The position numbers and the translations under genes were made by a program. From positions 1-38,083 of the IMG/VR virus record IMGVR_UViG_2913192161_000003: DNA of 38,083 bases. One strand, 5' to 3'. Under the pieces are notes generated by a model. The model was not told the DNA's origin and ran no database searches. It saw nothing but the letters and a program-made list of their open reading frames with translations. Below, in pieces: positions 8,126 through 38,083 of this stretch; position 1 is the stretch's first letter; each line of letters opens with the position of its first letter. This DNA comes from a virus. Taxonomy: Duplodnaviria > Heunggongvirae > Uroviricota > Caudoviricetes.

Positions 8126-8152
8126 CGCTTAAAATTGATAGTTGAGGTGATT

Positions 8153-8383
8153 ATGAAAAACCCCGCAGTAGAAAAGGCGATTGCCATTGCTGGCAGCCAG
8201 AAAGAGCTGGCGAAACGTTGTGGGAAGGCCCAATCAACGATCTGTGACTGGCTGAATGGCAAGAAGCGAATTTCGCCAGTCCATGTGCTCGACCTTGTTA
8301 ATGCGGTTGATGGGGAGATTAAGGCTTACGAGTTTCGTCCAGATCTCCCAGCAATTTTTCCGCATCCGGGCTCCATCGCCTGA
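8153..8383 (+). CDS. cro: Cro-like HTH regulator
   Basis: ORF 8135..8383; start taken at ATG 8153 (MKNPAVEKAI) after GAGGTG RBS; HTH segment (QKELAKRCGKAQSTICDWLNGKK). Confidence 0.7.
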   Translation: MKNPAVEKAIAIAGSQKELAKRCGKAQSTICDWLNGKKRISPVHVLDLVNAVDGEIKAYEFRPDLPAIFPHPGSIA

Positions 8384-8481
8384 GCCGCGCAACAGCTCAC
8401 CGCTCTTTAACAATCTGGAACCCTATTAAACCGGCTGAGTAATCAGCCAATTATTAACTATTCAACGATAGAGATAGCGAT

Positions 8482-9024: not shown

Positions 9025-9109
9025 CGGTTTCAAAAATGGCGAAAGCCGCTCTGCGCGAACAGAAGCGGCCTTCAGGTGGAATTAACTGGATCAATTCACA
9101 AGAGTAATT

Positions 9110-10111: not shown

Positions 10112-10797
10112 AATCTTTTGCAGAGCAGTTACGTAACCACGACCGTGAGCAGATGAGCCGCATAGCCCATAACCTGCCAGAGCAGTACCAGGAGCGCGCG
10201 CCGGTTGAGCAGGTGGCTCTGGTATTCAACGGACTGTTAAACCAGCTGCGTGCCGCGTTTCCGGCCAGCATGGCTAACTTCCGCACCCAGGACGACCTGA
10301 ACGAATTCCGCCGTCAGTGGCTGCTGGCGTTTCAGGAGAATGGGATCCACTCAATGACCCAGGTTGATGCCGGTATGCGTATAGCACGCCGCCAGGAGCG
10401 CCCATTTCTGCCGTCGCCGGGCCAGTTCGTCGCTTGGTGCAAGCAGAGTGGCGGGGTACTGGGTATCACCATTGAACAGGTGATCACCGAATACTGGGAC
10501 TGGCGTAACCGTTCGTTCGAATTCACCTCCAGCGAGCAATTCCCCTGGTCACAGCCGGTCATGTACCACATCTGCCTCGAACTTCGCCACCGCAGCACAG
10601 AGCGCCAGTTAACGCATGGTGAGCTGGCGCGTGAGGCCGGTGTCCTGCTGGACATGTGGGAGAAGCGTGTCTGTGATGGTAAGCCAGTGCCGCCTGTGCG
10701 TCGGGCAATTGCCGCACCAGTTGCCGATCGAGGACCGACGCCTATCCAACTGCTGCAGGCGAAGTACAACCGCAACAAGTCGAGCGGAATGGTGTGA
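10108..10797 (+). CDS. P: Replication protein P (lambda P-like helicase loader)
   Basis: Collinear similarity to lambda P recalled from memory (FxREQMxRIAxNxPEQY, RPFLPSPGQFVAWC). Confidence 0.85.
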   Translation: MKSFAEQLRNHDREQMSRIAHNLPEQYQERAPVEQVALVFNGLLNQLRAAFPASMANFRTQDDLNEFRRQWLLAFQENGIHSMTQVDAGMRIARRQERPFLPSPGQFVAWCKQSGGVLGITIEQVITEYWDWRNRSFEFTSSEQFPWSQPVMYHICLELRHRSTERQLTHGELAREAGVLLDMWEKRVCDGKPVPPVRRAIAAPVADRGPTPIQLLQAKYNRNKSSGMV

Positions 10798-10798
10798 G

Positions 10799-11092
10799 AT
10801 GACTGGTAAGCAGGCAATTCTTAACTACCTAAAGACGCATAAAAATTTTTGTGCGCCTGATGTATCAGCAGCCAGCGGAACAACGATGACCAGCATCAAT
10901 CAGGCTGCAAACATCATGTTTCATGACGGAGTAATTGTCCCTGAAGGAAGGGTATGGAGAACGGTGTATTACCGATACTCCACAGAAGCGGAACGTGAAG
11001 GCCTCGTTAGTACCAACGGGATATTTCAGGAATGCAAGAACTCGGCAGCAATGCAGCGTGTACTGGCGTTTTACGGGAGAACATCAGCGTGA
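10799..11092 (+). CDS. Hypothetical protein (97 aa)
   Basis: ORF 10616..11092 overlaps P; start taken at ATG 10799 just after the P stop (MTGKQAILNYLK...). Confidence 0.45.
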   Translation: MTGKQAILNYLKTHKNFCAPDVSAASGTTMTSINQAANIMFHDGVIVPEGRVWRTVYYRYSTEAEREGLVSTNGIFQECKNSAAMQRVLAFYGRTSA

Positions 11093-11247
11093 AACCAACT
11101 TATCAAGAACTGGAACTGCAACTTGCCGAGTCACATAGCGAGTTCCGGGCAGCAGACGCGACTATTCACAATCTGGAACTGAAACTCACCGATATGGCAG
11201 TACATCTCGCTAACGCCGAGAGCAAGTGCAGGGAGCTGGCGGCGTAG
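11089..11247 (+). CDS. Small coiled-coil protein (52 aa), tentative
   Basis: GTG start overlapping the upstream stop; helical sequence. Confidence 0.3.
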   Translation: MKPTYQELELQLAESHSEFRAADATIHNLELKLTDMAVHLANAESKCRELAA

Positions 11248-11271
11248 AATGTAACCGACGATGAGCGAATT

Positions 11272-11394
11272 ATGGCTATAGAGGGTATTCATAACTGCGA
11301 ACAGTGCGGTGATGAATTTTTTGAAACACAGAGCCGCAGTGTCACCGACTGGATGCCGCTGCCAGAACCGCCGAAGGAGGTTAACCGTGGCTAA
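11272..11394 (+). CDS. Small CxxC protein (40 aa), tentative
   Basis: Hand-translated MAIEGIHNCEQCGDEFF...; stop overlaps the next GTG start. Confidence 0.25.
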   Translation: MAIEGIHNCEQCGDEFFETQSRSVTDWMPLPEPPKEVNRG

Positions 11395-11668
11395 CCTGCA
11401 ACTTGCAGTCAAAGGTGAATACTTCGATGCCATGATTCGCGGAGAGAAAACGGAAGAGTATCGCCTTGTTAATGACTACTGGAAAAAGCGCCTCTTTAAC
11501 CGCGAGTATGACCGTCTGATCATCACAAAAGGATATCCGAAGCGCGATGATTCCAGTCGTAGAATTGACGTCCCGTATGGCGGATATGAAATCAAGGTAA
11601 TAACACATCCGCACTTCGGCCCTGATCCGGTTAAAGTTTTTGCTATAAAGGTGAGCATTAATACTTAA
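11387..11668 (+). CDS. Hypothetical protein, possibly ASCH-like
   Basis: ORF 11309..11668; start taken at GTG 11387 after GGAGG RBS; the KGEYFDAMIRGEKTEEYR segment resembles ASCH-domain N-termini (weak). Confidence 0.4.
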   Translation: MANLQLAVKGEYFDAMIRGEKTEEYRLVNDYWKKRLFNREYDRLIITKGYPKRDDSSRRIDVPYGGYEIKVITHPHFGPDPVKVFAIKVSINT

Positions 11669-11717
11669 ACCATTTTAAACTCAGTCTCGATCCGGTTTAC
11701 CTAAAGCAGGAGAGTTA

Positions 11718-11990
11718 ATGATGGAAAAGGTGAAGGTTTTTACACGAGAACATTTCAGTGACTATATGGATGCTGAATATATTTATTCTACCCGGCAGGG
11801 GAGGAATGGGCCGGTAGCAAATCATCAAATCACTATAGAAAAGAGTGAGCTAAGTGATGGCCTTTTCCTGGGCATGCCCTACAAGATGGCCATAAGCTTG
11901 AACGTGGTTGGGGCCGAAGATGGGTATAGAGATTATTATTTTGTCCACGATACAGCCGATGGGTATGTTTTTCAGACCAACCCCGGATAA
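11718..11990 (+). CDS. Hypothetical protein (90 aa)
   Basis: AGGAGA RBS upstream of ATG. Confidence 0.5.
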   Translation: MMEKVKVFTREHFSDYMDAEYIYSTRQGRNGPVANHQITIEKSELSDGLFLGMPYKMAISLNVVGAEDGYRDYYFVHDTADGYVFQTNPG

Positions 11991-12167
11991 TTGATTTTCT
12001 GAAATCAACCAGCCATAATCGCGTCATCGGAGCCTGAACAACTTCGATGACTTCTGCGCATTTAAGGGGACTTAAATGCGACCACAATCTGAACTCTTCA
12101 CCTTGTCACAGATGCAGAAATGCACCTGCGATTTTCTGCATTCTGCGTTACCTCCCGGAGGTGGCGT

Positions 12168-12617
12168 GTGAAGCAACAATTCCACCTCATGAACGACGCC
12201 ATCAAGCAGAACGCTATCAACTACATCCGCCAGTTGCCGGTGGATGCCAGACGACCACTGATTCTCGACATCAAGGAGATGACGCGCACGCTGGATCAGA
12301 ATCGCAAGATGTGGCCGTTACTGAAAGACCTCTCTGACCAGGTAACCTGGTTCGGCAATAAGTACGACCCTGACGACTGGAAAGACCTGATCACCGCGAT
12401 GGTCGCCAAGGCCAAAAAGCAAGAGCAGAGGATGGCACCTGGTCTCGACGGCGGCGTTGTGATGTTCGGTCAGCGTACAAGCAAGATGACCGTTCGGCAG
12501 ATGGTTGAAGTCATTGAGGCTATCTACTGGTTCGGTACGCAGCAGAGCGTGAAGTTCAGCGAGAAATCCCGCCTCGAAATCGAATGGGCGAAACAGTGGG
12601 GTGAGAAGCATGGCTAA
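12168..12617 (+). CDS. ninB: NinB recombination protein
   Basis: Strong similarity to lambda NinB recalled from memory (LDQNRKMW, VIGQRTSxM, LEIEWAKQWG); start taken at GTG 12168 after GGAGGTG. Confidence 0.8.
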   Translation: MKQQFHLMNDAIKQNAINYIRQLPVDARRPLILDIKEMTRTLDQNRKMWPLLKDLSDQVTWFGNKYDPDDWKDLITAMVAKAKKQEQRMAPGLDGGVVMFGQRTSKMTVRQMVEVIEAIYWFGTQQSVKFSEKSRLEIEWAKQWGEKHG

Positions 12618-12780
12618 CCTCATCAATCGCGTCATGAATGGAGGCATCTACAAAGTACCGGCGCACAGCAAGCGTAAGCCGGAACTGAGCCCATCAGAAA
12701 TACCCACTCTCAAAGATTACACATCCCGCCTAGTGGATCAGAAATGGCTGCGTCTCGCGGCACGGAGGCAGCATGGCTAA
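12610..12780 (+). CDS. Small basic protein, possibly NinE-like
   Basis: 56 aa hand-translated; C-terminus WLRLAARRQ resembles the lambda NinE C-terminus; overlaps the ninB stop. Confidence 0.35.
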   Translation: MANLINRVMNGGIYKVPAHSKRKPELSPSEIPTLKDYTSRLVDQKWLRLAARRQHG

Positions 12781-13063
12781 TTTGTGCAAAGCAGCACGCG
12801 GGCGCGAATGCCAGGTGCGGATCCCTGGGATATGCAACGGAAACTCTGAAACTTCGGTGCTGGCACATATCCGTATAGCTGGTCTATGCGGTACCGGAAT
12901 CAAGCCGCCTGACCTGATCGCCACCATCGCATGTAGCAGCTGCCACGACGAGATTGATCGCCGTACGCGTCTTGTCGATGCGGAATATGCGAAGGAGTGC
13001 GCGCTGGAAGGCATGGCACGCACGCAGGTTATTTGGCTGAAAGAGGGGCTCGTGAAGATATGA
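12773..13063 (+). CDS. YbcO-like protein (DUF1364, putative nuclease)
   Basis: 96 aa cysteine-rich; resembles DLP12 YbcO (recall) and holds the same nin-region position before rusA. Confidence 0.6.
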   Translation: MANLCKAARGRECQVRIPGICNGNSETSVLAHIRIAGLCGTGIKPPDLIATIACSSCHDEIDRRTRLVDAEYAKECALEGMARTQVIWLKEGLVKI

Positions 13064-13419
13064 ATATTTACGATATTACTCCTGTCAGCAAACCTCGCAT
13101 GACTCAACGGGACAGATGGGTAAAACGTCCGGGAACAGCAGCGTATTGGGCTTTTAAAGCCGAAGTACGCCTGCTAGGGATCTGCCTGCCTGAATCCGGT
13201 TATCACGTCACCTTCATCATTCCCATGCCAAAAAGCTGGAGCCAGAAGAAGCGGGCACAACTGAATGGCCATGCTCATCAGCAGAAACCGGATAAAGACA
13301 ACTTGGAAAAGGCGTTACTCGATGCCATTTTCGACGACGACAGCCGCGTCTGGGATGGCCGGGTGACAAAGCTCTGGGGAGAGAAAGGGCAGATCATTAT
13401 TGGGGAGTGTGCGCCGTGA
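13060..13419 (+). CDS. rusA: RusA-family Holliday junction resolvase
   Basis: ORF 12997..13419; start at ATG 13060 overlapping the upstream stop; acidic motif KPDKDNLEKALLDAIFDDD resembles the RusA catalytic DxDN region. Confidence 0.65.
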   Translation: MNIYDITPVSKPRMTQRDRWVKRPGTAAYWAFKAEVRLLGICLPESGYHVTFIIPMPKSWSQKKRAQLNGHAHQQKPDKDNLEKALLDAIFDDDSRVWDGRVTKLWGEKGQIIIGECAP

Positions 13420-13526
13420 CCAGAGACGAGATAGCACGGTACCAGGCAGAAAGCGTTAAGCGCGCCAGCATGCCACCAATAGCAAAGCACACTAAAACCA
13501 GCCAACCACAGAAGGAAGCCGCTTAA
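13416..13526 (+). CDS. Small hypothetical protein (36 aa)
   Basis: GTG start overlapping the rusA stop; stop overlaps the Q start. Confidence 0.25.
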   Translation: MTRDEIARYQAESVKRASMPPIAKHTKTSQPQKEAA

Positions 13527-14215
13527 TGAACACTCAATACCTCGAATACGTTCGCCAGCAGCTGATTGTGGCCACGGCAGATATGAGCGGAGCAACGAAA
13601 GGTCAACTGGTAGCATTCGCCGAGAACGCGATGTTTACAGCCACTCTACGCAGCCGGGGCAGGATGAAGGTGGTCAACCCGGTGAACGGGCGTTTAATGA
13701 ATCCCAATAACCCGCCGATCCCCGGCCAGCAGTCACGCGCGAAAGGCTCCCACATTCCACTGGTCAACCCGGTGGAGTTCTCTACAGCATCATGGCGCCG
13801 CGCGGTACTGTCGTTGGACGAACACCAGAGGGCGTGGCTGCTATGGAGCTACAGCGAGAACGTGCGCTTCGAATATCAGGTGGCGATAACCCAGTGGGCG
13901 TGGGCAGAGTTCCTGGAGCAGCTCGTCGCGAAGAAGATGGCTGGCAAGACGATGGAGCGCCTGAAGAAGCTTATCTGGCTGGCGGCGCAGGACGTCAAAG
14001 CGGAGTTGGCGGGTAAGGATGCCTACGAATACCAGGCGCTGGCAGAACTTGCTGGCGTGGCGAAATCCACTTGGACAGAAACCTATCTTCCTCACTGGCT
14101 GGCAATGCGCAACAGCTTTAAGCGGCTCGATAGCGGCTCGCTTATGGCCGTAACGCGATCACGATCACAACAAAAGTCGACAAATTATCAGCAAGATATT
14201 GCAAAACCGAACTGA
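13526..14215 (+). CDS. Late-gene antiterminator Q-like protein
   Basis: 229 aa at the end of the nin region, immediately upstream of tandem intrinsic terminators and the lysis cassette; family by position and recall. Confidence 0.6.
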   Translation: MNTQYLEYVRQQLIVATADMSGATKGQLVAFAENAMFTATLRSRGRMKVVNPVNGRLMNPNNPPIPGQQSRAKGSHIPLVNPVEFSTASWRRAVLSLDEHQRAWLLWSYSENVRFEYQVAITQWAWAEFLEQLVAKKMAGKTMERLKKLIWLAAQDVKAELAGKDAYEYQALAELAGVAKSTWTETYLPHWLAMRNSFKRLDSGSLMAVTRSRSQQKSTNYQQDIAKPN

Positions 14216-14219
14216 AACG

Positions 14220-14283
14220 CTTATATTTCATGTAAATCTGATATCGTCGCCATAGCTTTGGTTGTCGACCGAATTACAAAAAT
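14220..14283 (+). promoter_or_regulatory. Putative late promoter / Q-utilisation region
   Basis: Positional inference only (between the Q stop and the first terminator); exact -35/-10 not resolved. Confidence 0.3.
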
Positions 14284-14311
14284 AGCCCCAGTTAATCGCT
14301 GGGGCTTTTTC
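14284..14311 (+). terminator. Rho-independent terminator (tR-prime-like)
   Basis: Stem AGCCCC/GGGGCT with 11-nt loop followed by TTTTT. Confidence 0.7.
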
Positions 14312-14369
14312 GTATCTGGATACCTACCAGGACCATAAGAGCGAAAGCTCAACGCACCACCCTCATCTT

Positions 14370-14396
14370 GCCCACTGCGCCGTGGGCTCTTTATTC
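14370..14396 (+). terminator. Second rho-independent terminator
   Basis: Stem GCCCAC/GTGGGC, 6-nt loop, followed by TCTTTATT. Confidence 0.55.
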
Positions 14397-14470
14397 AGGC
14401 CGCCGACAATCACCTTCATATGCCACGTAGCTATCGTGTCGGACGGCCTACCTCTATACACGGAATAACT

Positions 14471-14869
14471 ATGTCTGAGCCAATCACAATTGCCAGTGGG
14501 GTGACCTCCGCTACGGTAGGGATCACTTTCGCTACGATGTTCCCGGAGGCGACGCCTGGCGTAATGTTATGTGCGCTGGCCGGGGCGGCAATGTATGTGC
14601 TGACCTCAGAGCCTCATCAACTCTGGAAGCAGATGCTCTTCGCGGTCATCTCGTTCATGGGCGGCGTGTTCTTCTCCGTTCCCATGGCCAAGATTCTCGC
14701 CGGGGTTATTAACACAGCTCTCGGGCTGTTGCAGCCGCCGGTCAGTATCGAAGTTTCACCGAATGTCGGTGCACTGGTATCCGCTTCCATTTCCGTCGCA
14801 GTCCTGCTTCGAATCGTCGCCAAGTCACGGCGCGGAAAGATGCCTGGACTGGAGGAGGAAGGGAAATGA
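14471..14869 (+). CDS. Putative holin (multi-TM membrane protein)
   Basis: ORF 14420..14869; start taken at MSEPIT (14471); several hydrophobic segments and a charged C-terminus; first gene of the lysis cassette. Confidence 0.5.
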   Translation: MSEPITIASGVTSATVGITFATMFPEATPGVMLCALAGAAMYVLTSEPHQLWKQMLFAVISFMGGVFFSVPMAKILAGVINTALGLLQPPVSIEVSPNVGALVSASISVAVLLRIVAKSRRGKMPGLEEEGK

Positions 14870-15141
14870 CATGGCATTCCGTCATCCTGGATGCAAACGC
14901 GATCATCTGTATGGCGATCGTGATGCGTCTGATGTTCTTCAGTAAAGCCGGGAAGACACACCGACCCGGTTACGCGTGGATGGCTTACCTGCTTATTCTG
15001 GCTGCAGGCTTCACCGCTTTCCGTATTCTCCTCGGCCACTACAGCAACGTTGATCCGGGTGAGTTATTTCTCAATCTGGCAATCTGTATTGCTGTCTGGC
15101 GAGCCAAAGGCAATCTGGCGAAAGTCGTAAGGGCTGAATGA
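14866..15141 (+). CDS. Second lysis-cassette membrane protein (holin/antiholin-like)
   Basis: 91 aa with two or three hydrophobic helices; coupled between the holin and endolysin genes. Confidence 0.5.
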   Translation: MTWHSVILDANAIICMAIVMRLMFFSKAGKTHRPGYAWMAYLLILAAGFTAFRILLGHYSNVDPGELFLNLAICIAVWRAKGNLAKVVRAE

Positions 15142-15683
15142 TGACCAAAGACGATATCTTCAACAGCATCCTCGGCAAAGAAGGTGGCTACGTTAATCAC
15201 CCGAACGACAAAGGCGGTCCCACGAACTGGGGAATTACTCAGGCAACGGCACGCGCACATGGCTATACCGGTGATATGCGTAATCTGACGCGCCAGCAAG
15301 CCCTGGAAATCCTTGAGGCTGATTACTGGTATGGCCCACGCTTCGACCAGGTTGCTGCTGTATCACCGGATATTGCCGCCGAACTCTGTGACACCGGAGT
15401 GAACATGGGGCCATCAGTGCAGGTGAAATGGTTCCAGCGTTGGCTGAACGTATTCAACAACCAGCAGCAACTCTATCCCGACCTGATTGCCGATGGCCAG
15501 ATAGGTCCGCGCAGCATCAGCGCCTTGAAGTCCTTCCTGGCGAAACGCGGAAGTGAAGGGGAGGAGGTATTGCTCCGATCACTGAACTGCAGCCAGGGTC
15601 AGCGTTATCTCGAACTGGCAGAACAGCGCCCGGCTAATGAGTCGTTCGTTTATGGCTGGGTGCGGGAGCGTGTAAGCCTATGA
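15138..15683 (+). CDS. Endolysin: GH108 N-acetylmuramidase with PG-binding domain
   Basis: N-terminal GH108 signature (GKEGGYVNHPNDKGGPTNWGIT) plus a C-terminal PG_binding_3-like region. Confidence 0.85.
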   Translation: MMTKDDIFNSILGKEGGYVNHPNDKGGPTNWGITQATARAHGYTGDMRNLTRQQALEILEADYWYGPRFDQVAAVSPDIAAELCDTGVNMGPSVQVKWFQRWLNVFNNQQQLYPDLIADGQIGPRSISALKSFLAKRGSEGEEVLLRSLNCSQGQRYLELAEQRPANESFVYGWVRERVSL

Positions 15684-15952
15684 CGAAACTGAAAGCCATA
15701 CTGGCGTTTATCGCCGCTGCTGCACTGATGGTGCTCGCAGCGTTCGGCTTGGGTAGCATGCGTGGCCGCGAGAAAGCCGAAGCAAAAGCTGATAAGCAGC
15801 ATACCGATGATAACGCCGCAGCCACCAAAGCAGCCGCAGACCGCCGCGTCGAAGTAACCAAAGAGGCCAGCAATGTACAGCAGACTGTTAGCCATATGCC
15901 TGATGACGACGTTGATCGTGAGCTGCGCTCAAACTGGACCCGCAAAGGTTGA
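15680..15952 (+). CDS. i-spanin (Rz-like)
   Basis: N-terminal TM helix followed by a charged periplasmic domain, directly after the endolysin. Confidence 0.55.
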   Translation: MTKLKAILAFIAAAALMVLAAFGLGSMRGREKAEAKADKQHTDDNAAATKAAADRRVEVTKEASNVQQTVSHMPDDDVDRELRSNWTRKG

Positions 15953-16109
15953 GTTAATCGACACTGGCTGTGACTGGGTGAGGCCAATTTATCTCACGGA
16001 AAACGATATCACCGTCATGGACAAGCAGACGAAGCGCGATGTGCTGGTGCATAACCGAGCGTGGAAATCTAATTGTTCGGTTCGAAATTCACAATCTGAT
16101 CGCCTATAG
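15873..16109 (+). CDS. o-spanin (Rz1-like lipoprotein), overlapping the i-spanin in another frame
   Basis: Signal peptide with lipobox-like IVSC (MYSRLLAICLMTTLIVSCAQ); starts inside the i-spanin gene. Confidence 0.5.
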   Translation: MYSRLLAICLMTTLIVSCAQTGPAKVELIDTGCDWVRPIYLTENDITVMDKQTKRDVLVHNRAWKSNCSVRNSQSDRL

Positions 16110-16581
16110 CTAGGGCTAGCTCAAAGAAACGTATGCATTCATCAATTGCTTCTTTATCAAAACCATTAGTATTGACATACGATCCTTCTTTGAAGTCCTG
16201 AGCCAAAGCTTGAAGTATTTGATGGTATTGGACTAATAACTTCGTTCTTTCTACACCCAGTAAACCAACCTTATTCAGGTTAGCATTATAAAACCTGGAG
16301 AAGTTGTCAGGTATCAAGATCGTGTAATAAACCTTTTCTCCAGCTAGGACTTCTGGGTGGTTAGCCATGGAGGTGAATGCCTCTAAATATTTCCTTTCCC
16401 TCATGACTTTTTGCAGTGACTCAACTTCCGCAACAAAGCCAGCAGCAAATGATAGTTTTTCAATGTCGTGATTACCACGACTGATTCGGTAGTTCACCCA
16501 TCCAGAGATACTTGCGCCTATGCATGCACCTATTAGGCCTGAGCATGCTGCGATTAATTGATTAATTGTGGTGATTTCCAT
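16069..16581 (-). CDS. Opposite-strand cargo gene: membrane-anchored protein of unknown function (170 aa)
   Basis: Only minus-strand gene in the plus-strand late block; AT-rich compared with flanks; N-terminal TM helix (INQLIAACSGLIGACIGASISGWV) plus about 140-aa soluble domain; lies where bor lies in lambda but is unrelated to Bor in sequence. Confidence 0.6.
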   Translation of the reverse strand: MEITTINQLIAACSGLIGACIGASISGWVNYRISRGNHDIEKLSFAAGFVAEVESLQKVMRERKYLEAFTSMANHPEVLAGEKVYYTILIPDNFSRFYNANLNKVGLLGVERTKLLVQYHQILQALAQDFKEGSYVNTNGFDKEAIDECIRFFELALAIGDQIVNFEPNN

Positions 16582-17271: not shown

Positions 17272-18547
17272 TCTGCAGATCCCCGCGAAGCTCGTTCCTG
17301 TATTCACCGCCGAGAATGTCCGTTACCGCTGCGCTTATGGTGGCCGTGGTTCGGCTAAGACGCGCACCTTTGCTTTGATGAGTGCTGTGCGCGCTTACGA
17401 GAAAGCAGAGGCGGGGATAAGTGGCGTGATTGTGTGTGGCCGCGAATACATGAACTCCCTCGAAGAGTCGAGTATGGAGGAGGTGAAGCAGGCAATCCGC
17501 GCCGTGCCGTGGCTCAATGATTACTTCGACATTGGTGAAAAGTACATCCGCACGAAGAACCGTCGCGTCAGTTACGTGTTCTGTGGCCTGCGGCATAACC
17601 TCGACAGCATCAAGTCGAAGGCGCGCATCCTGCTGGCATGGGTGGACGAAGCCGAATCGGTGTCTGATGTCGCCTGGAAAAAACTTCGTCCGACAGTGCG
17701 AGAGAAAGGATCTGAAATCTGGGTGACGTGGAACCCGGAGAAAGACGGCAGCGCCACTGATAAGCGATTCAGGAAGACCCCGCCGAAGAAATCCATCATC
17801 GTCGAGATGAACTACAACGATAACCCGTGGTTCCCCGATGTGCTGGAAGAGGAGCGACAGGACGACCTGGCAACTCTCGACTACGCCGATTACGCGTGGA
17901 TATGGGAAGGCGCATACCTCGAGAACTCCAACAAGCAGGTGCTGGCGAATCGCTATGTGGTGCAGAGCTTCCCTGATGACCTTTGGGAAAAGGCTGATCG
18001 CCTGCTGTTCGGCGGTGACTTCGGTTTCGCCGAAGATCCGTCAACACTGGTTCGCAACTTCATTCTCGATAACTGCCTGTATATCGAATACGAGGCCTAC
18101 GGCAAGCACGTTGAGCTCGACGACATGTGGAAGTTCTACGCCGGTAAGGATGGGGCGAAACCTCGCCAACTCGAAGAATGGAAAGTTACCGACGAGGCGA
18201 CATTCCCCGGCATACCAGAGGCGCGCCGCTGGCCTATCAAGGCGGATAACTCGCGGCCTGAGACAATCAGCCACATCAAGGCGCAGGGATTCAATATCTC
18301 AGCCGCCAAGAAGTGGCAGGGCAGTGTAGAAGATGGCATCACCTATCTGCGCGGGTTTAAGAAAATCATCATTCACCCGCGCTGCAAAGAGACGGCAAAA
18401 GAAGCCCGACTCTATTCCTACAAAACGGATCGCGTCACCAGTGAGGTGCTGCCGATTATCGAAGACAAAAACAACCACTGTTGGGACGCTGTCCGGTATT
18501 CACTGGATGGGCTGATCCGCAGAAAAGGGAAGGGCATTTTCTCATGA
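17255..18547 (+). CDS. Terminase large subunit
   Basis: Walker A-like YGGRGSAKT, ATPase and nuclease acidic motifs; ORF begins at TTG 17240, first ATG at 17255. Confidence 0.85.
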   Translation: MGATADLQIPAKLVPVFTAENVRYRCAYGGRGSAKTRTFALMSAVRAYEKAEAGISGVIVCGREYMNSLEESSMEEVKQAIRAVPWLNDYFDIGEKYIRTKNRRVSYVFCGLRHNLDSIKSKARILLAWVDEAESVSDVAWKKLRPTVREKGSEIWVTWNPEKDGSATDKRFRKTPPKKSIIVEMNYNDNPWFPDVLEEERQDDLATLDYADYAWIWEGAYLENSNKQVLANRYVVQSFPDDLWEKADRLLFGGDFGFAEDPSTLVRNFILDNCLYIEYEAYGKHVELDDMWKFYAGKDGAKPRQLEEWKVTDEATFPGIPEARRWPIKADNSRPETISHIKAQGFNISAAKKWQGSVEDGITYLRGFKKIIIHPRCKETAKEARLYSYKTDRVTSEVLPIIEDKNNHCWDAVRYSLDGLIRRKGKGIFS

Positions 18548-20109
18548 ACTGGAACTGGCTTAAGTGGTTTCGACCAAAAGCAGCAGTAATTGTTGAAGAG
18601 GCGAAGCCTGAGCCGGAAAAGAAGAAACGAGCAGGCACCTTCTCAACGCACAAGCAACATGCTTCATTCAGCCTGGATGATATCGAGCGCACTGCATTCC
18701 CCGTCAGGGCTGCACGTCCTGTTGATGCATCCGGTAAAGCAATGGATGAGTCGTGCGCTCAATCACCGTCTGCTGGGTATCGCTTCTCAACTATCGGCGG
18801 CGTACCGGACAACATCGTTGGCTGGTTCCTGTCGCAGAGCTTCATCGGTCATCAGCTGTGTGCCGTCATGGCTCAGCAGTGGCTGGTTAACCGTGCATGC
18901 AAAATCCCACCAGAGGACGCCACGCGCAACGGCTGGAAGATAACTGGCGTTGATCCGGAAAAGGTTCAGCGCCTGGAGAAGATCGACCGCAAGCGAGGAA
19001 TCAAACGTCAGGTGCAGGAGTATGCGCGCTTCAATCGGGTATTCGGCATTCGTATTGCCATCTTCTGTGTGGACAGCGACGACCCGAAGTATTACGAGAA
19101 GCCATTCAATATCGACGGTGTGCCAGAGGGTGGTTACCGCGGCATCAGCCAGGTAGACCCGTACTGGTGCGCACCTGAACTGGAAGGTGTGGATGTAACT
19201 GACCCATCGTCAGAGAACTTCTACGAGCCGACATACTGGCGCATAGCCAACAAGCGTTATCACCGGTCACACCTCGTCATCATTCGTTACTCAGAAGTCG
19301 CTGACGTGCTCAAGCCGACGTATCTGTTCGGTGGGCTGCCGTTGCCTCAGCTCATCTGGGAGCGCGTGTATGGCGCTGAGCGGTCGGCGAACGAAGGGCC
19401 GCAGTTGTTGATGTCTAAGCGGCTTAACGTCGTTAAGACTGACCTTGCGGAAGCGATGGCAGACCCTGACAACTTCCTGACGAAAATTCAGGAGTTCGTC
19501 GAACGTCGTGACAACTTCGGTGTGATGCCCATTGGTGACAGTGATGGGTATGAGCAGCACGAAACCTCTCTTGGCGACGTCGACTCAGTAATCATGACCG
19601 AGTATCAGCTCGTCGCGTCGGTTGCGGAGATGCCAGCAACGAAACTCCTCGGCACATCGCCGAAGGGATTCAACCCAACCGGTGATTTCGAGATGTCAGC
19701 TTACCGTGAAACGTTGGCCGGCATTCAGGAGCACAGCGGCACGCCGTTCCTGAATAGACATTACCAGTTGCTGACCAAATCAGAGTTCGGCGAGAGCATG
19801 GATATCGAAGTGGTGTGGAATCCGCTGGACGAACCTACCGAAACCGAGCAGGCGCAAACCGGCCTGGCGAAGGCGCAGACAGCTCAGATTTATCAGGAGC
19901 TGGGTGTGGTTAGCGCGAAACAGAACCAGCAGAAGCTAAAGGATGACGAATCCAGCGGCTACGAGTTTGAGGAGGTAGACGATGGCGGAGAAGAAAACGA
20001 CGGACTTGCAAGAGCAATCGCGGCCGTTCTTCAGCCCCCTGTATCTGGAGCAGCAGTACCAGCGACGGCTCCGACGCCTGGTAAACTGGATGAAAGGCAA
20101 CCTGTCTGA
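18544..20109 (+). CDS. Portal protein
   Basis: 521 aa starting at MNWNW (ATG 18544 overlapping the terminase stop); position and size typical of a portal. Confidence 0.75.
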   Translation: MNWNWLKWFRPKAAVIVEEAKPEPEKKKRAGTFSTHKQHASFSLDDIERTAFPVRAARPVDASGKAMDESCAQSPSAGYRFSTIGGVPDNIVGWFLSQSFIGHQLCAVMAQQWLVNRACKIPPEDATRNGWKITGVDPEKVQRLEKIDRKRGIKRQVQEYARFNRVFGIRIAIFCVDSDDPKYYEKPFNIDGVPEGGYRGISQVDPYWCAPELEGVDVTDPSSENFYEPTYWRIANKRYHRSHLVIIRYSEVADVLKPTYLFGGLPLPQLIWERVYGAERSANEGPQLLMSKRLNVVKTDLAEAMADPDNFLTKIQEFVERRDNFGVMPIGDSDGYEQHETSLGDVDSVIMTEYQLVASVAEMPATKLLGTSPKGFNPTGDFEMSAYRETLAGIQEHSGTPFLNRHYQLLTKSEFGESMDIEVVWNPLDEPTETEQAQTGLAKAQTAQIYQELGVVSAKQNQQKLKDDESSGYEFEEVDDGGEENDGLARAIAAVLQPPVSGAAVPATAPTPGKLDERQPV

Positions 20110-20728
20110 TGAGTTACTGGCAACCAGTGGCCCATCGCTCGACTCAAAACTGACAACACTGTCTGGCAAATACGCCAACCTGTTCCGCGATTACGCCCCC
20201 ACGATGTTTAACCCGGTACTCGACGGCGCTGATAAGTCTACTCAGCGGCAATTCACCGCGCTGAAACTTGACGATGCCGTTAACGCTGATGCTGTGCGCG
20301 GGTACTTCCGTGACGCAGCGCAGAAGAATGCACAACTGATATCGACGTTGCCGACGGACCACATCGAGAGGATTCGAAAGGCTGTGGCCGAGTCGCCTGG
20401 CGATCTGTCCGCGCTGAAAGACATCCTGTCTGATGCCAACGGCAAGCTCGACCGTCGCTCACGAAACATCGCAATGGACCAGACGCGAAAGGCGTACAAC
20501 GACACGGCAATGATGAAGGCCCAGGCAACTGGGGCAACCAAAGGCATCTGGATCCACTCACATCGAGGCCCTGCGCATTCCCGTCCTAAACATGTTAAGG
20601 CGCACGGTGAAGAGTTTGACCTTGCCGTTGGCCTTCCGGTGGGCGATAGCGGTCAGAACGTCATCCCCGGAGAGGAAATTAACTGTCGTTGCACATTCAA
20701 ACTGGTGGTCGACTTTGGAGTGAAATAA
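19982..20728 (+). CDS. Head morphogenesis protein (MuF / SPP1 gp7 family)
   Basis: GAGGAGG RBS before ATG 19982; C-terminal PGEEINCRCT motif; overlaps the portal 3-prime end by 128 nt in another frame. Confidence 0.7.
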   Translation: MAEKKTTDLQEQSRPFFSPLYLEQQYQRRLRRLVNWMKGNLSDELLATSGPSLDSKLTTLSGKYANLFRDYAPTMFNPVLDGADKSTQRQFTALKLDDAVNADAVRGYFRDAAQKNAQLISTLPTDHIERIRKAVAESPGDLSALKDILSDANGKLDRRSRNIAMDQTRKAYNDTAMMKAQATGATKGIWIHSHRGPAHSRPKHVKAHGEEFDLAVGLPVGDSGQNVIPGEEINCRCTFKLVVDFGVK

Positions 20729-27810: not shown

Positions 27811-28263
27811 GTGGCTGAATTACTGGAAGCGAAAAACGTCACGGTGAAAGACCGGGCCGGTAACGATGTACCGTTTATCATCGGTAAGTTTCCTGCCATT
27901 GCAGCGCGGGAGATTGCCGCGAAGTATCCAACCTCGATTGCGGCACTGGCGAAGCAGTGGGAAGAGAACCAGTACGCTGAGAGTGAGAAGATCATGCTCA
28001 AGGCGATGACGTTCGTTGATCGCGTACTGGATGACGGCTCAACCATTCGCCTGACCACTGCGGCTCTGGTTGATAACCATGTGCCGGACGGCGAAGCGTT
28101 GATGCGTCTTGAGAAAGAGTTGCTCGAGTATAACTTCTCTTTTTTCGAAAAGTTCACCCGCTCCATTTCCTCCGGCGGTATCGTGCAGAATATGATCAAG
28201 TTGATTACGTCAACGCTGACCAGTTCATTGCAACAATCCTCTCGGCAGGACAAGCAACCCTGA
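27811..28263 (+). CDS. Tail assembly chaperone (G-like), with -1 frameshift extension to 28379
   Basis: GTG start; slippery heptamer T_TTT_TTC at 28140-28146; the -1 frame is open from 28146 to the TGA at 28377-28379 (checked codon by codon). Confidence 0.6.
   Translation: MAELLEAKNVTVKDRAGNDVPFIIGKFPAIAAREIAAKYPTSIAALAKQWEENQYAESEKIMLKAMTFVDRVLDDGSTIRLTTAALVDNHVPDGEALMRLEKELLEYNFSFFEKFTRSISSGGIVQNMIKLITSTLTSSLQQSSRQDKQP
28140..28146 (+). other. Putative -1 programmed ribosomal frameshift slippery site (U UUU UUC)
   Basis: X_XXY_YYZ heptamer in the zero frame of the chaperone gene; the conserved position between tube and tape measure genes supports a G/GT-type frameshift. Confidence 0.55.
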
Positions 28264-28432
28264 CAGAACTGAAGACCTCCGTCACGCTGGAGGAGGCCTT
28301 TAGCCTTTGGGAAATTGTCATGACTACACGGTTTAACGAGTGGTGGGCAATGGAGCAGATCAATAAAAAACGAAGTTGAGATCGAAAATTCATACCGCTT
28401 TCGCCGCCTGTGATATTTTTACGGAGATATCA

Positions 28433-28915
28433 ATGCCATTGGTGAGGATGGTCGTGAAATATTCTGACTTCAAAAAAATGCCGTACAGGCAGCGAAGAGA
28501 TTACATAAAAGGCGGCGGTAAAGTAGAGCGGACGTTAGGGCAAAAGGTTGTTTACTACGGGTCAACGATCTTTATTGTTCTGGTGGCTATCTCGTTTGTG
28601 AGGTCGTGCTCAAATCAGCCCAGAGATAACCAGTACATCTCTGACATGATGATCGCGATATGCACTACCGAAGTTAAAGAAAGAATCAAAGATCCAAGCA
28701 GCTTCGACGCTGACAGATCAAACACCATTACGACCAGCACTACTGACGGTTACAGTGTTGACATGGTGTTCCATGCTAAAAACTCTTTTGGTGCCACGGT
28801 TCCTGGTTCAGCAAAATGCACTTTCAGCAAGTTAGGTGAAGATAAAAAACCATTGCTGGAGTCCAAAGAGAAGGCAGTTATGACGTCGATATCTGTTAAC
28901 GGGAAGAGAGCATGA
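28433..28915 (+). CDS. Cargo gene 1: single-pass membrane protein of unknown function (161 aa)
   Basis: ORF 28376..28915 begins on TTG; ATG 28433 has a GGAG RBS; basic N-terminus, TM helix (VVYYGSTIFIVLVAISFV), about 100-aa C-terminal domain; AT-rich; possible sigma70 promoter TTCATA-17-GATATT at 28389-28417. Confidence 0.55.
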   Translation: MPLVRMVVKYSDFKKMPYRQRRDYIKGGGKVERTLGQKVVYYGSTIFIVLVAISFVRSCSNQPRDNQYISDMMIAICTTEVKERIKDPSSFDADRSNTITTSTTDGYSVDMVFHAKNSFGATVPGSAKCTFSKLGEDKKPLLESKEKAVMTSISVNGKRA

Positions 28916-29424
28916 TGGATGAGATTATTTCTGACTTGGTAGAAAAACACGGCATAGATAGTTCTCTCGCCGCCCAAATAGCTAACGATTTTCTGGAAAT
29001 GGATTTTGATAAGTTTCAAGTTGAAATGTCAGAGCTTGAACTCGCGGTCCTTAAGTCTTGGGGTGGGTCTCAAGAGTTATCGGCACTTTTAATCGAGAGA
29101 TATTCAGGAATAAACGCTAAGAAAGTTGGATTTATTGCAGCTAGATTTTGCTGCAAATATGTATCCTACGCAAACATTAATAAGTTATTAAAGGCTGGCG
29201 TCAAGAGTGGGGAATGGATTTATGGTGGTGCCGTGTGTGAGCATGCGGAGTTGGCATCGAAAAAATTCAATCTTTCTGAGGGCGCTAACTTTAACGGAAT
29301 TAATATCTTCCCAGGAAGGGAGTGGGATTGCCGTTGTTCGTCTAAACCCATAATCGACTTCTTCGACGAAGAGGAGAAAGTTCCGCCCAAAAAAGGCTTC
29401 TTCGCTAAGTTGTTTGGTAAATAG
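28912..29424 (+). CDS. Cargo gene 2: protein with a MuF-like C-terminal region (170 aa)
   Basis: ATGA-coupled to cargo gene 1; C-terminal segment FPGREWDCRCS resembles the C-terminus of the head morphogenesis protein in this window (IPGEEINCRCT); AT-rich. Confidence 0.55.
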   Translation: MMDEIISDLVEKHGIDSSLAAQIANDFLEMDFDKFQVEMSELELAVLKSWGGSQELSALLIERYSGINAKKVGFIAARFCCKYVSYANINKLLKAGVKSGEWIYGGAVCEHAELASKKFNLSEGANFNGINIFPGREWDCRCSSKPIIDFFDEEEKVPPKKGFFAKLFGK

Positions 29425-29446
29425 CCATTTCTTTATAAGTTAACAA

Positions 29447-29468
29447 CCCCGCTCTGCGGGGTTTTTTA
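29447..29468 (+). terminator. Rho-independent terminator closing the cargo cassette
   Basis: CCCCGC-TCT-GCGGGG hairpin followed by TTTTTTA. Confidence 0.75.
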
Positions 29469-29479
29469 TTGGAGCCAGC

Positions 29480-31204
29480 ATGGGCATTCTCGACACGTTT
29501 GTATTTCTCCTGGAAACAGATAACCGTGATGCGTTACGCGGATTGCGCGACACTGACCGTGCGCTTGGAGATGTAGAGGACGGTTCTAACAGTGCTCATA
29601 AATCCATGCTTGGCATGTTTGATGGCGTGCTGCAAAAAGCAGGGTTAACTAGCGATGGCTTTAAAGAACTCGCAGTAAGCGCCCTGGGTATAGCCGGGGC
29701 TGGCTTATCGCTCAATGCGATGCTTGATCATACAGCTGAAATGTTAGCCAAAGTTCAGGCTGCTGAAACAGTTGGTGTGAATATCGGCGAATATGACGCC
29801 CTGTCTAGGACGTTCCTGGCACTTGGCGTAGATGCTGACGGATTTCGTGACTCCATGATCGACCTTAACGAGGCGATGGGTGAGGCGGCATCCGATGCAA
29901 AATCAGGGAAGGCTGAGTCATTCAAAACTTTTGGCGTCAGCCTGAAGGATGTCAAAGGCAACATCAAATCTGCTGATGAGGCGTTGCTCGAGTTATCCGA
30001 CACGATGTCGAAGATGGATAAACAGCAGGCCACTTTCCAGATCAAGCAACTTGGCATTACGGACAATGCCGTTATTGCCGCCATGCTGAATGGGCGCAAG
30101 GCACTGGAAAAGCAAATCCAACTGCAGAAAGAGTTGGGCGTCCTGAACGAAAAAGACGTAGAGCAACTTAAGCGATTCAAGCAGGCGCAAAACGAGTTAA
30201 ATACAATCTTCTCGCGATTTGCTGATCAGATAGCAATGAGTGTAACTCCGGCCCTCGAATTGTTAATTGAAACAACTCAAAAGGTAATCGCGTGGGGGCG
30301 TGAGCATAAAGTTTTCCTATTCACCTTCTTTGGAGCGCTTGCAACCGTAGCTATTCCCGCCTTGACCGCTTCATTATGGCGAATGGCGGCGGCGGCATGG
30401 GGTGCGATGGCTCCATTTATTCCAATCATTGCTGTCGCTGCTGCTCTGGGCCTAGTAGTGGAAGACCTCTGGCAGTACTTCAACGGCGGCGAATCAGTCA
30501 TCGGTGATCTGGTACAGAAGTTCCCTGCGCTAGCCGGTGTCTTAGAGAATGTGAAAGAAAGTTTCCTGGGGGCATGGGAGGCGCTGAAACTCCTGTTTTC
30601 CGATCCTTCACAATTCATGGATGTGCTGGTTGCAGAGCTGCAGGCCAGTTGGGATGAGATAGTTCAGGGTGTAGTCGATGCTGGCGATGCCATAGGAAAG
30701 GCTCTCAACAGTGCATGGGAGAAACTCACCGCTGACACCAAGAAAGTATTCAATGACCTGCTGTCATGGGTAAAGAACATCTTCTCCCAGATAGGAGCCT
30801 ACATTTCAGACGCCGTATCAAACGCAGGCAAGGCCGCCTATGACAAGTTGCCTGACTTCATGAAAAAGGCGATCAACGCCGTGAAGGGAGAGGACGAACC
30901 GAAATCGGTACAGCCTACGCCAGACGGCGTGGTTGATGACGTTAATCCAATCAAACAACCAATGCCGTCAGTGCAGGCCGCAAACAGCTCTATGCAGGAT
31001 ATTGCCAATGCCCCGGCAATACCGGCAAATCCAGGCGCAGGCCGCTCATCGAGGGTCAGTAACACACAAAACGTCAATGTCGCCAAGGTCGAAGTGACCA
31101 CGCAGGCCACTGACGCGCAGGGTATTGCCAGCAGTATGACCGATGGGCTGAAGAATGCTTACGGAGATATGGCAAACCAATATGACGATGGAAGGAGCCA
31201 TTAA
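29480..31204 (+). CDS. Tail tape measure protein
   Basis: 574 aa, helical with a hydrophobic central segment; GGAG RBS; position after the chaperone. Confidence 0.75.
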   Translation: MGILDTFVFLLETDNRDALRGLRDTDRALGDVEDGSNSAHKSMLGMFDGVLQKAGLTSDGFKELAVSALGIAGAGLSLNAMLDHTAEMLAKVQAAETVGVNIGEYDALSRTFLALGVDADGFRDSMIDLNEAMGEAASDAKSGKAESFKTFGVSLKDVKGNIKSADEALLELSDTMSKMDKQQATFQIKQLGITDNAVIAAMLNGRKALEKQIQLQKELGVLNEKDVEQLKRFKQAQNELNTIFSRFADQIAMSVTPALELLIETTQKVIAWGREHKVFLFTFFGALATVAIPALTASLWRMAAAAWGAMAPFIPIIAVAAALGLVVEDLWQYFNGGESVIGDLVQKFPALAGVLENVKESFLGAWEALKLLFSDPSQFMDVLVAELQASWDEIVQGVVDAGDAIGKALNSAWEKLTADTKKVFNDLLSWVKNIFSQIGAYISDAVSNAGKAAYDKLPDFMKKAINAVKGEDEPKSVQPTPDGVVDDVNPIKQPMPSVQAANSSMQDIANAPAIPANPGAGRSSRVSNTQNVNVAKVEVTTQATDAQGIASSMTDGLKNAYGDMANQYDDGRSH

Positions 31205-37309: not shown

Positions 37310-38083
37310 TTATATTTGCCTACCTCCTAATAAAATGTGTGAGGTGTATTTGTTGGTTTTCAATAACCTTGCTACAATTATGCAGGTGGTTACAATAAGG
37401 AAAACAAATGAAGGGGTTATGATGAGGTTATATATGAGTGGATTTTCGCATAGGTTATTAATGTTCACGTATGCCTCTATTCTGTAAAAAATAAACGACG
37501 AAATTATATAGATAGGAAATGTGTAAATACCGACAAAGGATGTGGTTCGTATAAATAAATTATTTTTCGTTGATAAAAATGTATATGCATATATAAGCGA
37601 CATGCTTCCGGCGAAGCCAATGAAGTAGCGAAATATAATAATGAATGATTGATGCCAGAAATCAACATTATCATATGTCATTTTAGATATGTAAATATAA
37701 TACTCCCTATTCCATAGGAGAAGCATACCAATCCATGTTAATACGGATAAGACACCAAGTTTGTGCCTATTTTTAGAGGCGAAGTCTAAAATGCGATGGG
37801 CGAATATACCAGCGATAAAATAAGGGGCCATAAATTTAATTTTGTCCATATTCCAATCATCTCCATATGCAAGAGATATACTAAAGAACAGTAAATAAAG
37901 CACCGCAGAATATTGTTTGCTTATTGAGTGACAAATAGTATAAGCAATAGATACTGCAAAGAGTGCGGAAAGGAACCAGAAGGCGTAGATGGCTCCATAT
38001 CTAATATTTATTAAATTTATATCTCTTCCCACAAAAATGGATTCAGCAATGAACCATGCAATGGATGGGATTATTAATTGCAT
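37310..38083 (-). CDS. Acyltransferase family 3 integral membrane protein (O-antigen acetylase-like), N-terminus beyond the window
   Basis: 257 aa visible, very hydrophobic multi-TM and aromatic-rich; strongly AT-rich; located after the tail fibre genes, a common place for lysogenic-conversion genes; the ORF runs to the window edge so the true start is probably outside. Confidence 0.65.
   Translation of the reverse strand: MQLIIPSIAWFIAESIFVGRDINLINIRYGAIYAFWFLSALFAVSIAYTICHSISKQYSAVLYLLFFSISLAYGDDWNMDKIKFMAPYFIAGIFAHRILDFASKNRHKLGVLSVLTWIGMLLLWNREYYIYISKMTYDNVDFWHQSFIIIFRYFIGFAGSMSLIYAYTFLSTKNNLFIRTTSFVGIYTFPIYIISSFIFYRIEAYVNINNLCENPLIYNLIITPSFVFLIVTTCIIVARLLKTNKYTSHILLGGRQI

Follow-up and report, generated by a model that had tools for sequence, protein, structure and literature searches.

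Few head proteins of phages are as widespread as the MuF proteins, the relatives of SPP1 gp7 collected in the Pfam family PF04233 and comprising the 'short MuF' class of Jamet et al. (2017), yet their structure and molecular role are poorly defined. What is known of them so far concerns two roles, that of a head component associated with the portal and that of a carrier for injected toxins; in SPP1, gp7 binds strongly to the portal and supports the initiation of infection (PMC6316719). Here we describe a 170-residue protein related to this class that is encoded at positions 28912–29424 of IMG/VR record IMGVR_UViG_2913192161_000003, a tailed phage genome whose whole analysed stretch of 38,083 nucleotides is called the window below. 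Its gene (gene 2) is the second of a two-gene cassette in the tail module, and an earlier note on this DNA had proposed, from an alignment by eye, that the last 70 or so residues of this small protein resemble the C-terminus of the MuF protein that the same phage encodes directly after its portal gene (the resident MuF, 19982–20728).

Other systems also bear comparison with this locus. In the MuF polymorphic toxins, which share the association with temperate phages, a MuF core is extended C-terminally, right after its PVIPGFDD-type end, by a toxin domain, and the gene lies in the packaging module with that of a small immunity protein downstream. Ejection proteins of the 80alpha gp44 and T4 gp2 type are minor head proteins with genes next to the portal gene, and they act on incoming DNA at the start of infection and protect the genome ends; 80alpha gp44, which may or may not belong to the MuF superfamily, binds DNA and genome ends (PMC7290940). 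The HK97 moron gene gp15, situated between the genes for tail chaperone and tape measure, encodes an inner-membrane protein that excludes superinfecting phages (PMC3594210). Finally, E. coli MinD ends in the membrane-targeting sequence (MTS) KGFLKRLFGG (PMC5471200).

The MuF core and C-terminal tail of the small protein

Both open reading frames (ORFs) that the earlier note had named are present on the plus strand, encoding 170 residues in the case of the small protein and 248 in that of the resident MuF. In a pairwise BLASTP comparison (28912–29421 against 19982–20725) the two proteins are 26% identical over 122 residues (E 2e-8), and the alignment pairs PGREWDCRCS of the small protein with PGEEINCRCT of the resident MuF, in agreement with the P-G-x-E-x-x-C-R-C motif that had been picked out by eye. 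The aligned span runs from residue 35 to 157 of the small protein and from 124 to 248 of the resident MuF, indicating that the similarity extends over some 120 residues rather than 70 and takes in the whole of the Pfam-defined MuF domain. The homology suggested by the earlier note is thus real, and its restriction to the C-terminal tail has to be given up.

Profile comparisons support the same assignment. The small protein matches the PHROGs family phrog_324, 'head morphogenesis' (E 5.7e-9, residues 50–158), and when an alignment of 17 members of the small-protein family was compared by hhalign with one of 30 canonical MuFs, all of which match PF04233 (best E 2e-16), a probability of 99.8% was returned (E 1.2e-29, 119 columns). 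A tblastn search of 50,697 phage records with the small protein gave 47 matches; the best 40 of these, at 25–32% identity, lie in unannotated records or in genes whose annotation reads head morphogenesis, minor capsid or hypothetical. Judged by these alignments, the small protein is a true homologue of the MuF domain.

The Pfam model itself fails to report this relationship. PF04233 (Phage_Mu_F; gathering score 29.6 bits) did not match the small protein at E ≤ 1 in a Pfam scan, so that a plain scan of this kind would miss the homology; the resident MuF scores 36.9 bits on the same model, and four of the 17 small-family members match it weakly (best E 0.0056). The pairwise and profile checks that the earlier note had put forward therefore favour homology by BLASTP, phrog_324 and hhalign and come out negative with the PF04233 hidden Markov model (HMM). 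No meaningful match was obtained in an NCBIfam scan of the small protein; nucleotide searches of the region by megablast and blastn gave no match in phage and E. coli genome collections; and scans of viral contigs with the single protein returned either nothing or only canonical and toxin-fused MuFs. A recent duplication of the resident muf gene was considered and rejected: at 26% identity the small protein scores 38 bits against the resident MuF and 52–56 bits against MuFs of Pseudomonas and Burkholderia phages, which shows that it is not a recent copy of its neighbour.

A structural model was obtained with AlphaFold2 (AF2) from the 17-sequence alignment (predicted local distance difference test, pLDDT, 87.8; predicted TM-score 0.79), and was used in place of an earlier four-sequence run that was poor in the MuF core (pLDDT 59.9). 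A Foldseek search of BFVD with this model, a comparison of predicted with predicted structures, gave 21 matches at E ≤ 1e-3 (best 4e-7, probability 1.0, TM-scores 0.4–0.5), and the named proteins among them are almost all MuF, minor-capsid or head-morphogenesis proteins. The modelled fold of the small protein is the same as that of the MuF domain. Structure prediction had also been proposed in the earlier note, and similarity to MuF, the absence of which from both profiles and structures would have spoken for a chance motif in an unrelated fold, was found in both. In the PDB no solved structure resembling the model was found, and a sequence search with the resident MuF gave no match there.

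The model and the family alignments divide the small protein into three parts (Table 1). The N-terminal hairpin, with helices at residues 2–13 and 17–29 (pLDDT ~96), precedes the hhalign match (residue 35 onwards) and has no counterpart in canonical MuFs; it is kept across the family (alignment A2) and has a pI of 4.05. Conversely, the small protein is without the ~125-residue N-terminal half of canonical MuFs. No transmembrane segment was detected in it, the highest 19-residue Kyte–Doolittle average being 0.75. Within the core, W102, H111, G124, P134, C140 and C142 are invariant in the 17-member alignment and C109, F79, G96, L114 and G135 nearly so, and the canonical MuFs conserve W190, R201, H204, C235 and C237, with H192 near-invariant (resident-MuF numbering). 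The MuF signature W ... R-x-x-H ... P-G ... C-x-C is accordingly represented in the small protein by W102, H111, P134, G135, C140 and C142. The family lacks the counterparts of R201 and H192 and has gained a cysteine, C109, two residues before the histidine; the resulting C-x-H ... C-x-C arrangement could, as a reasonable reading of the alignment, form a metal site.

The third part is the C-terminal tail. Canonical short MuFs end 8–23 residues past the C-x-C, typically with ...P(V/I)IPGFDD, whereas a linker and a net-positive amphipathic segment follow the core in 17 of 20 small-family sequences and in none of the 30 canonical MuFs. In the clade that includes the window protein the tail reads ...EEEKVPPKKGFFAKLFGK, with KKGFFSRLFGG/R and KKGFLSRLFGR in relatives. 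These tails are identical to the MinD MTS at six to eight of ten positions and share its hydrophobic register, the F/L-x-x-L-F spacing of MinD-type sequences being present in KKGFFAKLFGK and the fuller F-(F/L)-x-x-L-F-G pattern being common to both; each stands at the extreme C-terminus after an acidic run. The remoter family members keep the basic amphipathic character only and not the MinD-like sequence. Unlike in MinD, the tail is attached to a MuF core and not to a ParA/MinD ATPase. We regard it as a candidate membrane anchor.

The position of the tail also invites comparison with the MuF polymorphic toxins. Two viral contigs encode MuF fusions of 772–776 residues (L013 7347–9677; L014 570–2888) in which ...CRCALAPVIPGFDDQ closes the MuF domain and a long linker and an effector region come after it, and the tail of the small family thus starts exactly where the cargo of MuF toxins starts. 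Unlike the toxin extensions, that of the small protein amounts to ~15–20 residues, an acidic linker and the amphipathic tail; only 28 residues follow its C-x-C, and no Pfam, NCBIfam or PADLOC domain was found in the protein. The neighbouring gene differs as well, being upstream and coding for a membrane protein instead of downstream and coding for a small immunity protein; downstream of gene 2 there are the terminator and the tape measure gene and no immunity gene, and the locus is not in the packaging module. Given the missing toxin domain, the small protein is not a MuF polymorphic toxin.

The comparison with the MuF/SPP1 gp7 proteins is a mixed one. The ~120-residue core, the W...H...PG..CxC..P(V/I)I signature and the predicted fold are shared, and both kinds of protein come from tailed temperate phages. 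By homology the small protein is a MuF protein, yet it lacks features that go with the class: it falls below the Pfam threshold, is not encoded after the portal gene, where this phage already has a canonical MuF, and is without the N-terminal half, the invariant arginine and one conserved histidine. In exchange it has the extra cysteine of the CxH motif, the N-terminal hairpin and a tail resembling a membrane-targeting sequence, and its gene is carried by a moron of the tail module. The identification is solid and the family undescribed; its function is something that we infer.

The cassette, its insertion site and its first gene

The phage is a temperate, lambdoid-regulated prophage of the E217-like myovirus type, and the cassette consists of 1100 extra bases between the frameshift extension of its tail chaperone gene and the tape measure gene. 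Gene 1 and gene 2 follow each other with an ATGA overlap, and a terminator closes the cassette (Table 1). In Erwinia phage RF1 and Yersinia phage P744, the closest cultured phages (tube protein 73–76% identical), the cassette and its terminator are absent, and at the junction the tape-measure ATG overlaps or abuts the stop codon of the chaperone extension with nothing between. The GC content of the cassette is 41–46% against 51–54% in its flanks. The terminator is kept in all six cassette-bearing loci, whether they hold both genes or gene 1 only, and the changes in its stem preserve pairing. In the sense of Juhala and Hendrix, whose definition is used here, the cassette is a textbook moron, with extra DNA, deviating GC content and a terminator of its own.

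The earlier note had described gene 2 as coding for a small stand-alone protein in a tail-module cassette beside a membrane protein, and this is what we find, the cassette being an insertion. Its view that such a placement is unusual for MuF also agrees with published counts, 85–87% of muf genes adjoining portal or terminase genes (PMC5576092); here that position is held by the resident MuF and not by gene 2. The MinD-like tail, the CxH...CxC cluster, the terminator and the wider family go beyond what the earlier note had reported.

Table 1. Features of the cassette and related genes in the window (positions refer to the 38,083-nucleotide stretch; residue numbers are those of the small protein).
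Feature	Position	Strand	Basis or remark
Q-type late antiterminator	13526–14215	+	PF06323 E 2.5e-85
Resident canonical MuF, directly after portal gene	19982–20728	+	PF04233 E 7e-9; phrog_324 E 5e-39
Tail assembly chaperone (27811–28263) with −1 frameshift extension; left insertion boundary	27811–28379	+	
Extended −10-like element TGTGATATT, candidate moron promoter upstream of gene 1	28409–28417	+	alignment A4
Gene 1: bitopic inner-membrane protein, 153 aa	28454–28915	+	ORF, transmembrane scan, dN/dS
Gene 2: stand-alone, N-terminally truncated, diverged MuF-domain protein, 170 aa	28912–29424	+	ORF, homology, dN/dS
Residues 1–34: family-specific acidic N-terminal helical hairpin	28912–29013	+	AF2 helices, family alignment
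Residues 35–157: MuF core	29014–29382	+	hhalign, phrog_324, BFVD structural matches
Putative metal-binding cluster C109-x-H111 ... C140-x-C142 in P134-G135-R-E-W-D-C-R-C	29236–29337	+	family alignment
Residues 160–170, KKGFFAKLFGK: basic amphipathic C-terminal tail	29389–29421	+	likeness to MinD MTS
Intrinsic terminator AACCCCGC TCT GCGGGGTT + T-run	29445–29471	+	8 pairs, 6 GC; ends 9 nt before tape-measure ATG 29480
Tail tape measure protein; right insertion boundary	29480–31204	+	phrog_8125 E 5.5e-36

In genomic site, foreign GC content, terminator, absence from relatives and the presence of a small inner-membrane protein, here the product of gene 1, the cassette is like the HK97 gp15 moron. 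The likeness is one of position, no sequence relationship of the cassette to HK97 gp15 having been found. Unlike the HK97 locus, the cassette has two genes, the second encoding a presumably cytoplasmic MuF-derived protein, and its host is an E217-type myovirus.

The product of gene 1 has a basic N-terminus, one transmembrane segment (residues 31–49) and a periplasmic domain of ~100 residues, as predicted by the transmembrane scan. Its start is conserved together with a GGTGAGG ribosome-binding site, an alternative upstream ATG at 28433 being possible in the window alone. The ratio of non-synonymous to synonymous substitution rates (dN/dS) for gene 1 is 0.06–0.17. PHROGs matches to its product are to families of unknown function only, and tblastn of gene 1 against phages gave no match. 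An assignment as a lipoprotein was rejected, 'VRSC' being a poor lipobox and the NCBIfam matches insignificant. By analogy with HK97 gp15, gene 1 is a candidate for an injection-blocking exclusion protein.

Gene 1 also occurs without gene 2. It is found alone with the terminator, at the equivalent site, in E217-like prophages of Cronobacter turicensis (16 contigs; for example L016 6001–6456) and in a metagenome contig (L017 6001–6462), indicating that gene 2 is an optional add-on to a gene 1 moron and not an obligate partner. An unrelated siphovirus has a relative of gene 1 with 38% identity just before its tape measure gene, beside a BrnT toxin gene (L018 6001–6384).

The boundaries of the insertion raise two further points. 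In the −1 frame of the chaperone gene the extension is open from ~28131 to 28379 (~79 codons, with TGA at 28377–28379), as in a classic programmed frameshift of the G/GT type; a slippery heptamer T_TTT_TTC is present at 28140–28146, but since neither RF1 nor P744 has kept it, the precise point of slippage is tentative. Within a lambdoid late operon, the terminator at the other end need not be an obstacle. Late transcription modified by lambda Q reads through terminators, and given the Q-type antiterminator of this phage, a terminator within its late operon would be tolerable and would stop only transcripts that start in the moron.

A dispersed family and its possible roles

Close homologues of the small protein are few. 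Four were found among 5.8 billion clustered proteins, one identical and the others 79%, 71% and 67% identical, with Citrobacter gillenii, C. portucalensis and read assemblies as their sources, and a further one comes from Escherichia sp. E1V33. Pairwise dN/dS values for gene 2 against four orthologues are 0.09–0.19 at dS of 0.6–2.1, showing that it is a real gene under clear purifying selection. An exhaustive HMM search of 1.84 billion representatives gave 86 proteins at E ≤ 1e-3; about 15 of these are stand-alone proteins of 150–210 residues that align over their full length, and the rest are canonical MuFs of 250–320 residues matched through their C-terminal part. Where the source of a member is named, it is Serratia, Yersinia alsatica or Pseudomonas panipatensis, and all clusters are tiny, with one to four sequences. 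The family is conserved across Citrobacter, Escherichia, Serratia, Yersinia and Pseudomonas. As delimited by these alignments, the small MuF proteins are a rare family with an N-terminal hairpin, a MuF core bearing CxH...CxC and usually a basic amphipathic tail. Literature searches on MuF combined with polymorphic toxins, superinfection exclusion or morons returned no stand-alone MuF core with a membrane-targeting tail and no MuF-derived moron.

The neighbourhoods of the other members are diverse. P0021 belongs to an E217-like baseplate module, in which its gene separates those of the spike and the sheath initiator, runs counter to the structural genes and is followed by the gene of a 108-residue signal-peptide protein; P0008, also on the opposite strand, lies between Pam3_gp18-like and E217_GP41-like genes and is preceded by a homologous secreted protein of 137 residues. 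The Serratia member P0009 adjoins baseplate genes, again on the opposite strand, and has an Arc-like ribbon–helix–helix (RHH) gene before it. P0058 and P0017 likewise follow an Arc-like RHH gene, P0017 between Q/NinG-like and lysis/glycosyltransferase/HicAB genes. In P. panipatensis, P0011 is part of a ~10-kb island with integrase, AlpA and Toprim/DUF3631 primase genes, where it is convergent with an E217_GP41 homologue. Taken together, tail modules of the E217 type have received a family member at three or more different intergenic sites, as a rule with the gene pointing against the structural genes, which favours mobile, independently transcribed accessory genes over virion parts.

Some of these neighbourhoods show recurrent arrangements. 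In a subfamily comprising P0009, P0012, P0017 and P0058 the small MuF gene is directly 3' of an Arc/MetJ-type RHH gene, with an overlap or a short spacer (L008 357–1165; L020 3–882; L025 7646–8549), an order that resembles both arc–ant and antitoxin–toxin arrangements. The secreted protein of 108–137 residues is paired with small MuF genes at two baseplate insertion sites, in either gene order (L007 7662–7988; L023 7579–7992); it has a signal peptide and a conserved C-terminal motif ...VYFD..F.......C.NG.K...PLK, with no match in Pfam and a weak PHROG of unknown function. The P. panipatensis island (L021 ~6400–16522; L022), which also carries a helix–turn–helix gene, resembles P4-like satellites. 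No portal or capsid genes were seen in it, the check for a portal covering the genes called in a 16.5-kb stretch, and the island may be a satellite that borrows from, or interferes with, an E217-like helper phage.

We put at roughly 40% the probability that the small protein is a lysogen-expressed, membrane-tethered MuF decoy directed against superinfecting or competing phages. The cassette would be transcribed from the repressed prophage up to its own terminator, with Q-modified late transcription reading through. The gene 2 product would be cytoplasmic and held at the inner face of the inner membrane by its amphipathic tail, and its MuF core, retaining the canonical binding activity, would act as the decoy, either by capturing incoming genome ends or injected proteins at the site of entry or by titrating portal protein at the membrane. 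On the periplasmic side gene 1 would come into play, in the manner of HK97 gp15. The earlier note had thought of a repurposed effector or a decoy; it is the genomic context that makes a decoy or exclusion role plausible, and the opposite-strand placement of other family members in E217-like baseplate modules, at two further intergenic sites, lends it support. The portal binding of SPP1 gp7 and the ejection proteins of the gp44/gp2 type suggest what a MuF-type core could bind. Unlike the latter, which are packaged and help their own phage, the small protein would act from the resident cell.

A number of observations weigh against the decoy. The function is one that we infer throughout, and the main difficulty lies in the orientation of the cassette, which is that of the late operon: the protein would also be made late and would then encounter the portal and MuF of its own phage. 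For a decoy this is awkward, unless it recognised foreign partners specifically. The arginine invariant in canonical MuFs is lost, and to our knowledge the part of MuF that binds the portal or DNA has not been established. AF2 leaves the tail unstructured (pLDDT ~50), so that a tail helix and its binding to membranes are proposals on our part; the MinD tail is likewise unstructured off the membrane. A lone MTS of the MinD type, moreover, binds membranes weakly and needs oligomerisation. Evidence for transcription from within the moron is weak: TGTGATATT is conserved across loci with diverging flanks (alignment A4), and a strict sigma-70 scan called neither this element nor any other promoter upstream of gene 1. 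PADLOC assigned neither cassette gene to a known defence family. The partners of the family members also vary, from a transmembrane protein to a secreted protein, an Arc-like RHH protein or none, and pairing with gene 1 is therefore not obligatory.

A wider version of the decoy proposal would have the MuF core repurposed across the family, yielding prophage-encoded, membrane-tethered anti-phage proteins that recognise the portal or genome ends of rivals. In that case a weak MinD-like tail would gain avidity once several copies had bound a multimeric target, which would be sequestered at the inner membrane, and, as morons, the genes would have reached various temperate myoviruses of the E217-like kind as well as a satellite-like island. 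Exclusion or interference between phages by decoys of this sort would form a class of its own, and a new one. Stated at this breadth the proposal seems to us possible and rather doubtful.

Other explanations of the same data have to be weighed. The small protein might be a second, minimal MuF that serves the phage's own particle or its assembly, made late with the tail genes and binding the resident portal. Once packaged and ejected into the next host, it could use its tail to anchor at the inner membrane the complex or genome end that enters, as a miniature 'cargo' in place of a toxin; or it could nucleate procapsids by tethering the portal to the membrane, as gp40 of T4 does with gp20. The orientation of the gene, which is embedded in the late operon, would fit this, as would the site of the tail, directly after ...CxC..PVIPGFDD where MuF–toxin fusions carry their C-terminal extension, and the nature of MuF domains as head-targeting modules (PMC5576092; PMC5512222; PMC6316719). 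Nevertheless, gene 2 is absent from the closest relatives and from the Cronobacter prophages that keep gene 1, which means that it is dispensable for virion formation there. The low GC content and the terminator are hallmarks of morons, most other members of the family are on the strand opposite to the structural genes, one lies in the small integrase/AlpA/primase island whose called genes include no portal gene, and the N-terminal half of MuF is missing. We consider a role in the phage's own particle unlikely.

An abortive-infection or toxin–antitoxin-like module, in which the MuF core senses a foreign portal or genome end and the tail or an envelope partner then damages or depolarises the membrane, appears distinctly unlikely. 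In such a scheme the Arc-like protein of the RHH-linked subfamily would be an antitoxin or repressor. Three members indeed stand directly 3' of an Arc/RHH gene, by overlap or a short spacer, in the classic antitoxin–toxin order, others pair with envelope proteins, and portal proteins are triggers of bacterial immune sensors such as Avs. Yet plain repression of morons or antirepressors is another task of Arc-like RHH proteins, and they occur only in another subfamily; the clade of the window protein has no RHH gene or other antitoxin-like neighbour of the sort that accompanies a type II toxin. Nor did any PADLOC model match, a toxin or enzymatic domain is not recognisable, and the 11-residue MinD-like tail is a membrane anchor in kind and not a known pore former. 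As for the suspicion that there is no functional MuF relative at all, but a chance CRC motif in an unrelated fold or the decaying fragment of a duplicated muf gene, the silence of PF04233 and NCBIfam on the small protein, the weak PF04233 matches in only four of 17 members and the lack of a matching solved structure could be cited in its favour. It is already contradicted by the hhalign and PHROG scores, by structural neighbours that are nearly all MuF or minor-capsid proteins, by dN/dS values that stay low at dS of up to ~2 and by conservation across five genera, and its chances are close to nil.

These distinctions matter for how MuF proteins are understood. The family isolates the conserved core from its head context, adds a candidate membrane anchor and is carried in morons that are probably expressed in lysogens. 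Should the decoy proposal hold, it would represent a new principle in prophage-mediated exclusion, the copying of a rival's own virion part, and it would provide a compact 120-residue tool for learning what the MuF core binds. Should it be wrong, the family would still mark a branch of MuF that is invisible to Pfam and is now labelled 'hypothetical' by annotation pipelines.

The host phage and other features

The assignment of the phage is reflected in its gene content. Regulation, replication, lysis and packaging are represented by a CI-like repressor (7332–8030, minus strand), O/P replication genes, a GH108 endolysin and TerS/TerL, in addition to the Q-type antiterminator of Table 1. The head is of the Pseudomonas phage E217 type, with portal, MuF, a Pa193_gp24-like protein, cement and capsid proteins, and so is the contractile tail, with sheath, tube, Dit-like protein, gp41-like protein, sheath initiator and wedge.

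The start of the resident MuF can be read in two ways. From ATG 19982 its ORF overlaps the portal ORF (18481–20109) by 128 nt, and the gene callers applied to related loci (L001, L002, L004) start it at 20090, which gives a protein of 212 residues. In the long form the PHROG match begins at residue 10, and homologues conserve residues there (Y26).

Two further genes lie outside the structural modules. An acyltransferase of the Acyl_transf_3 family (37310–38083, minus strand), probably an O-antigen-modifying lysogenic conversion gene, lies at the prophage's right end, and in the identical contig L004 its neighbour is thrS. The early region encodes a Dam-type N6-adenine methyltransferase (1423–1980, minus strand; PF05869 E 1e-55).

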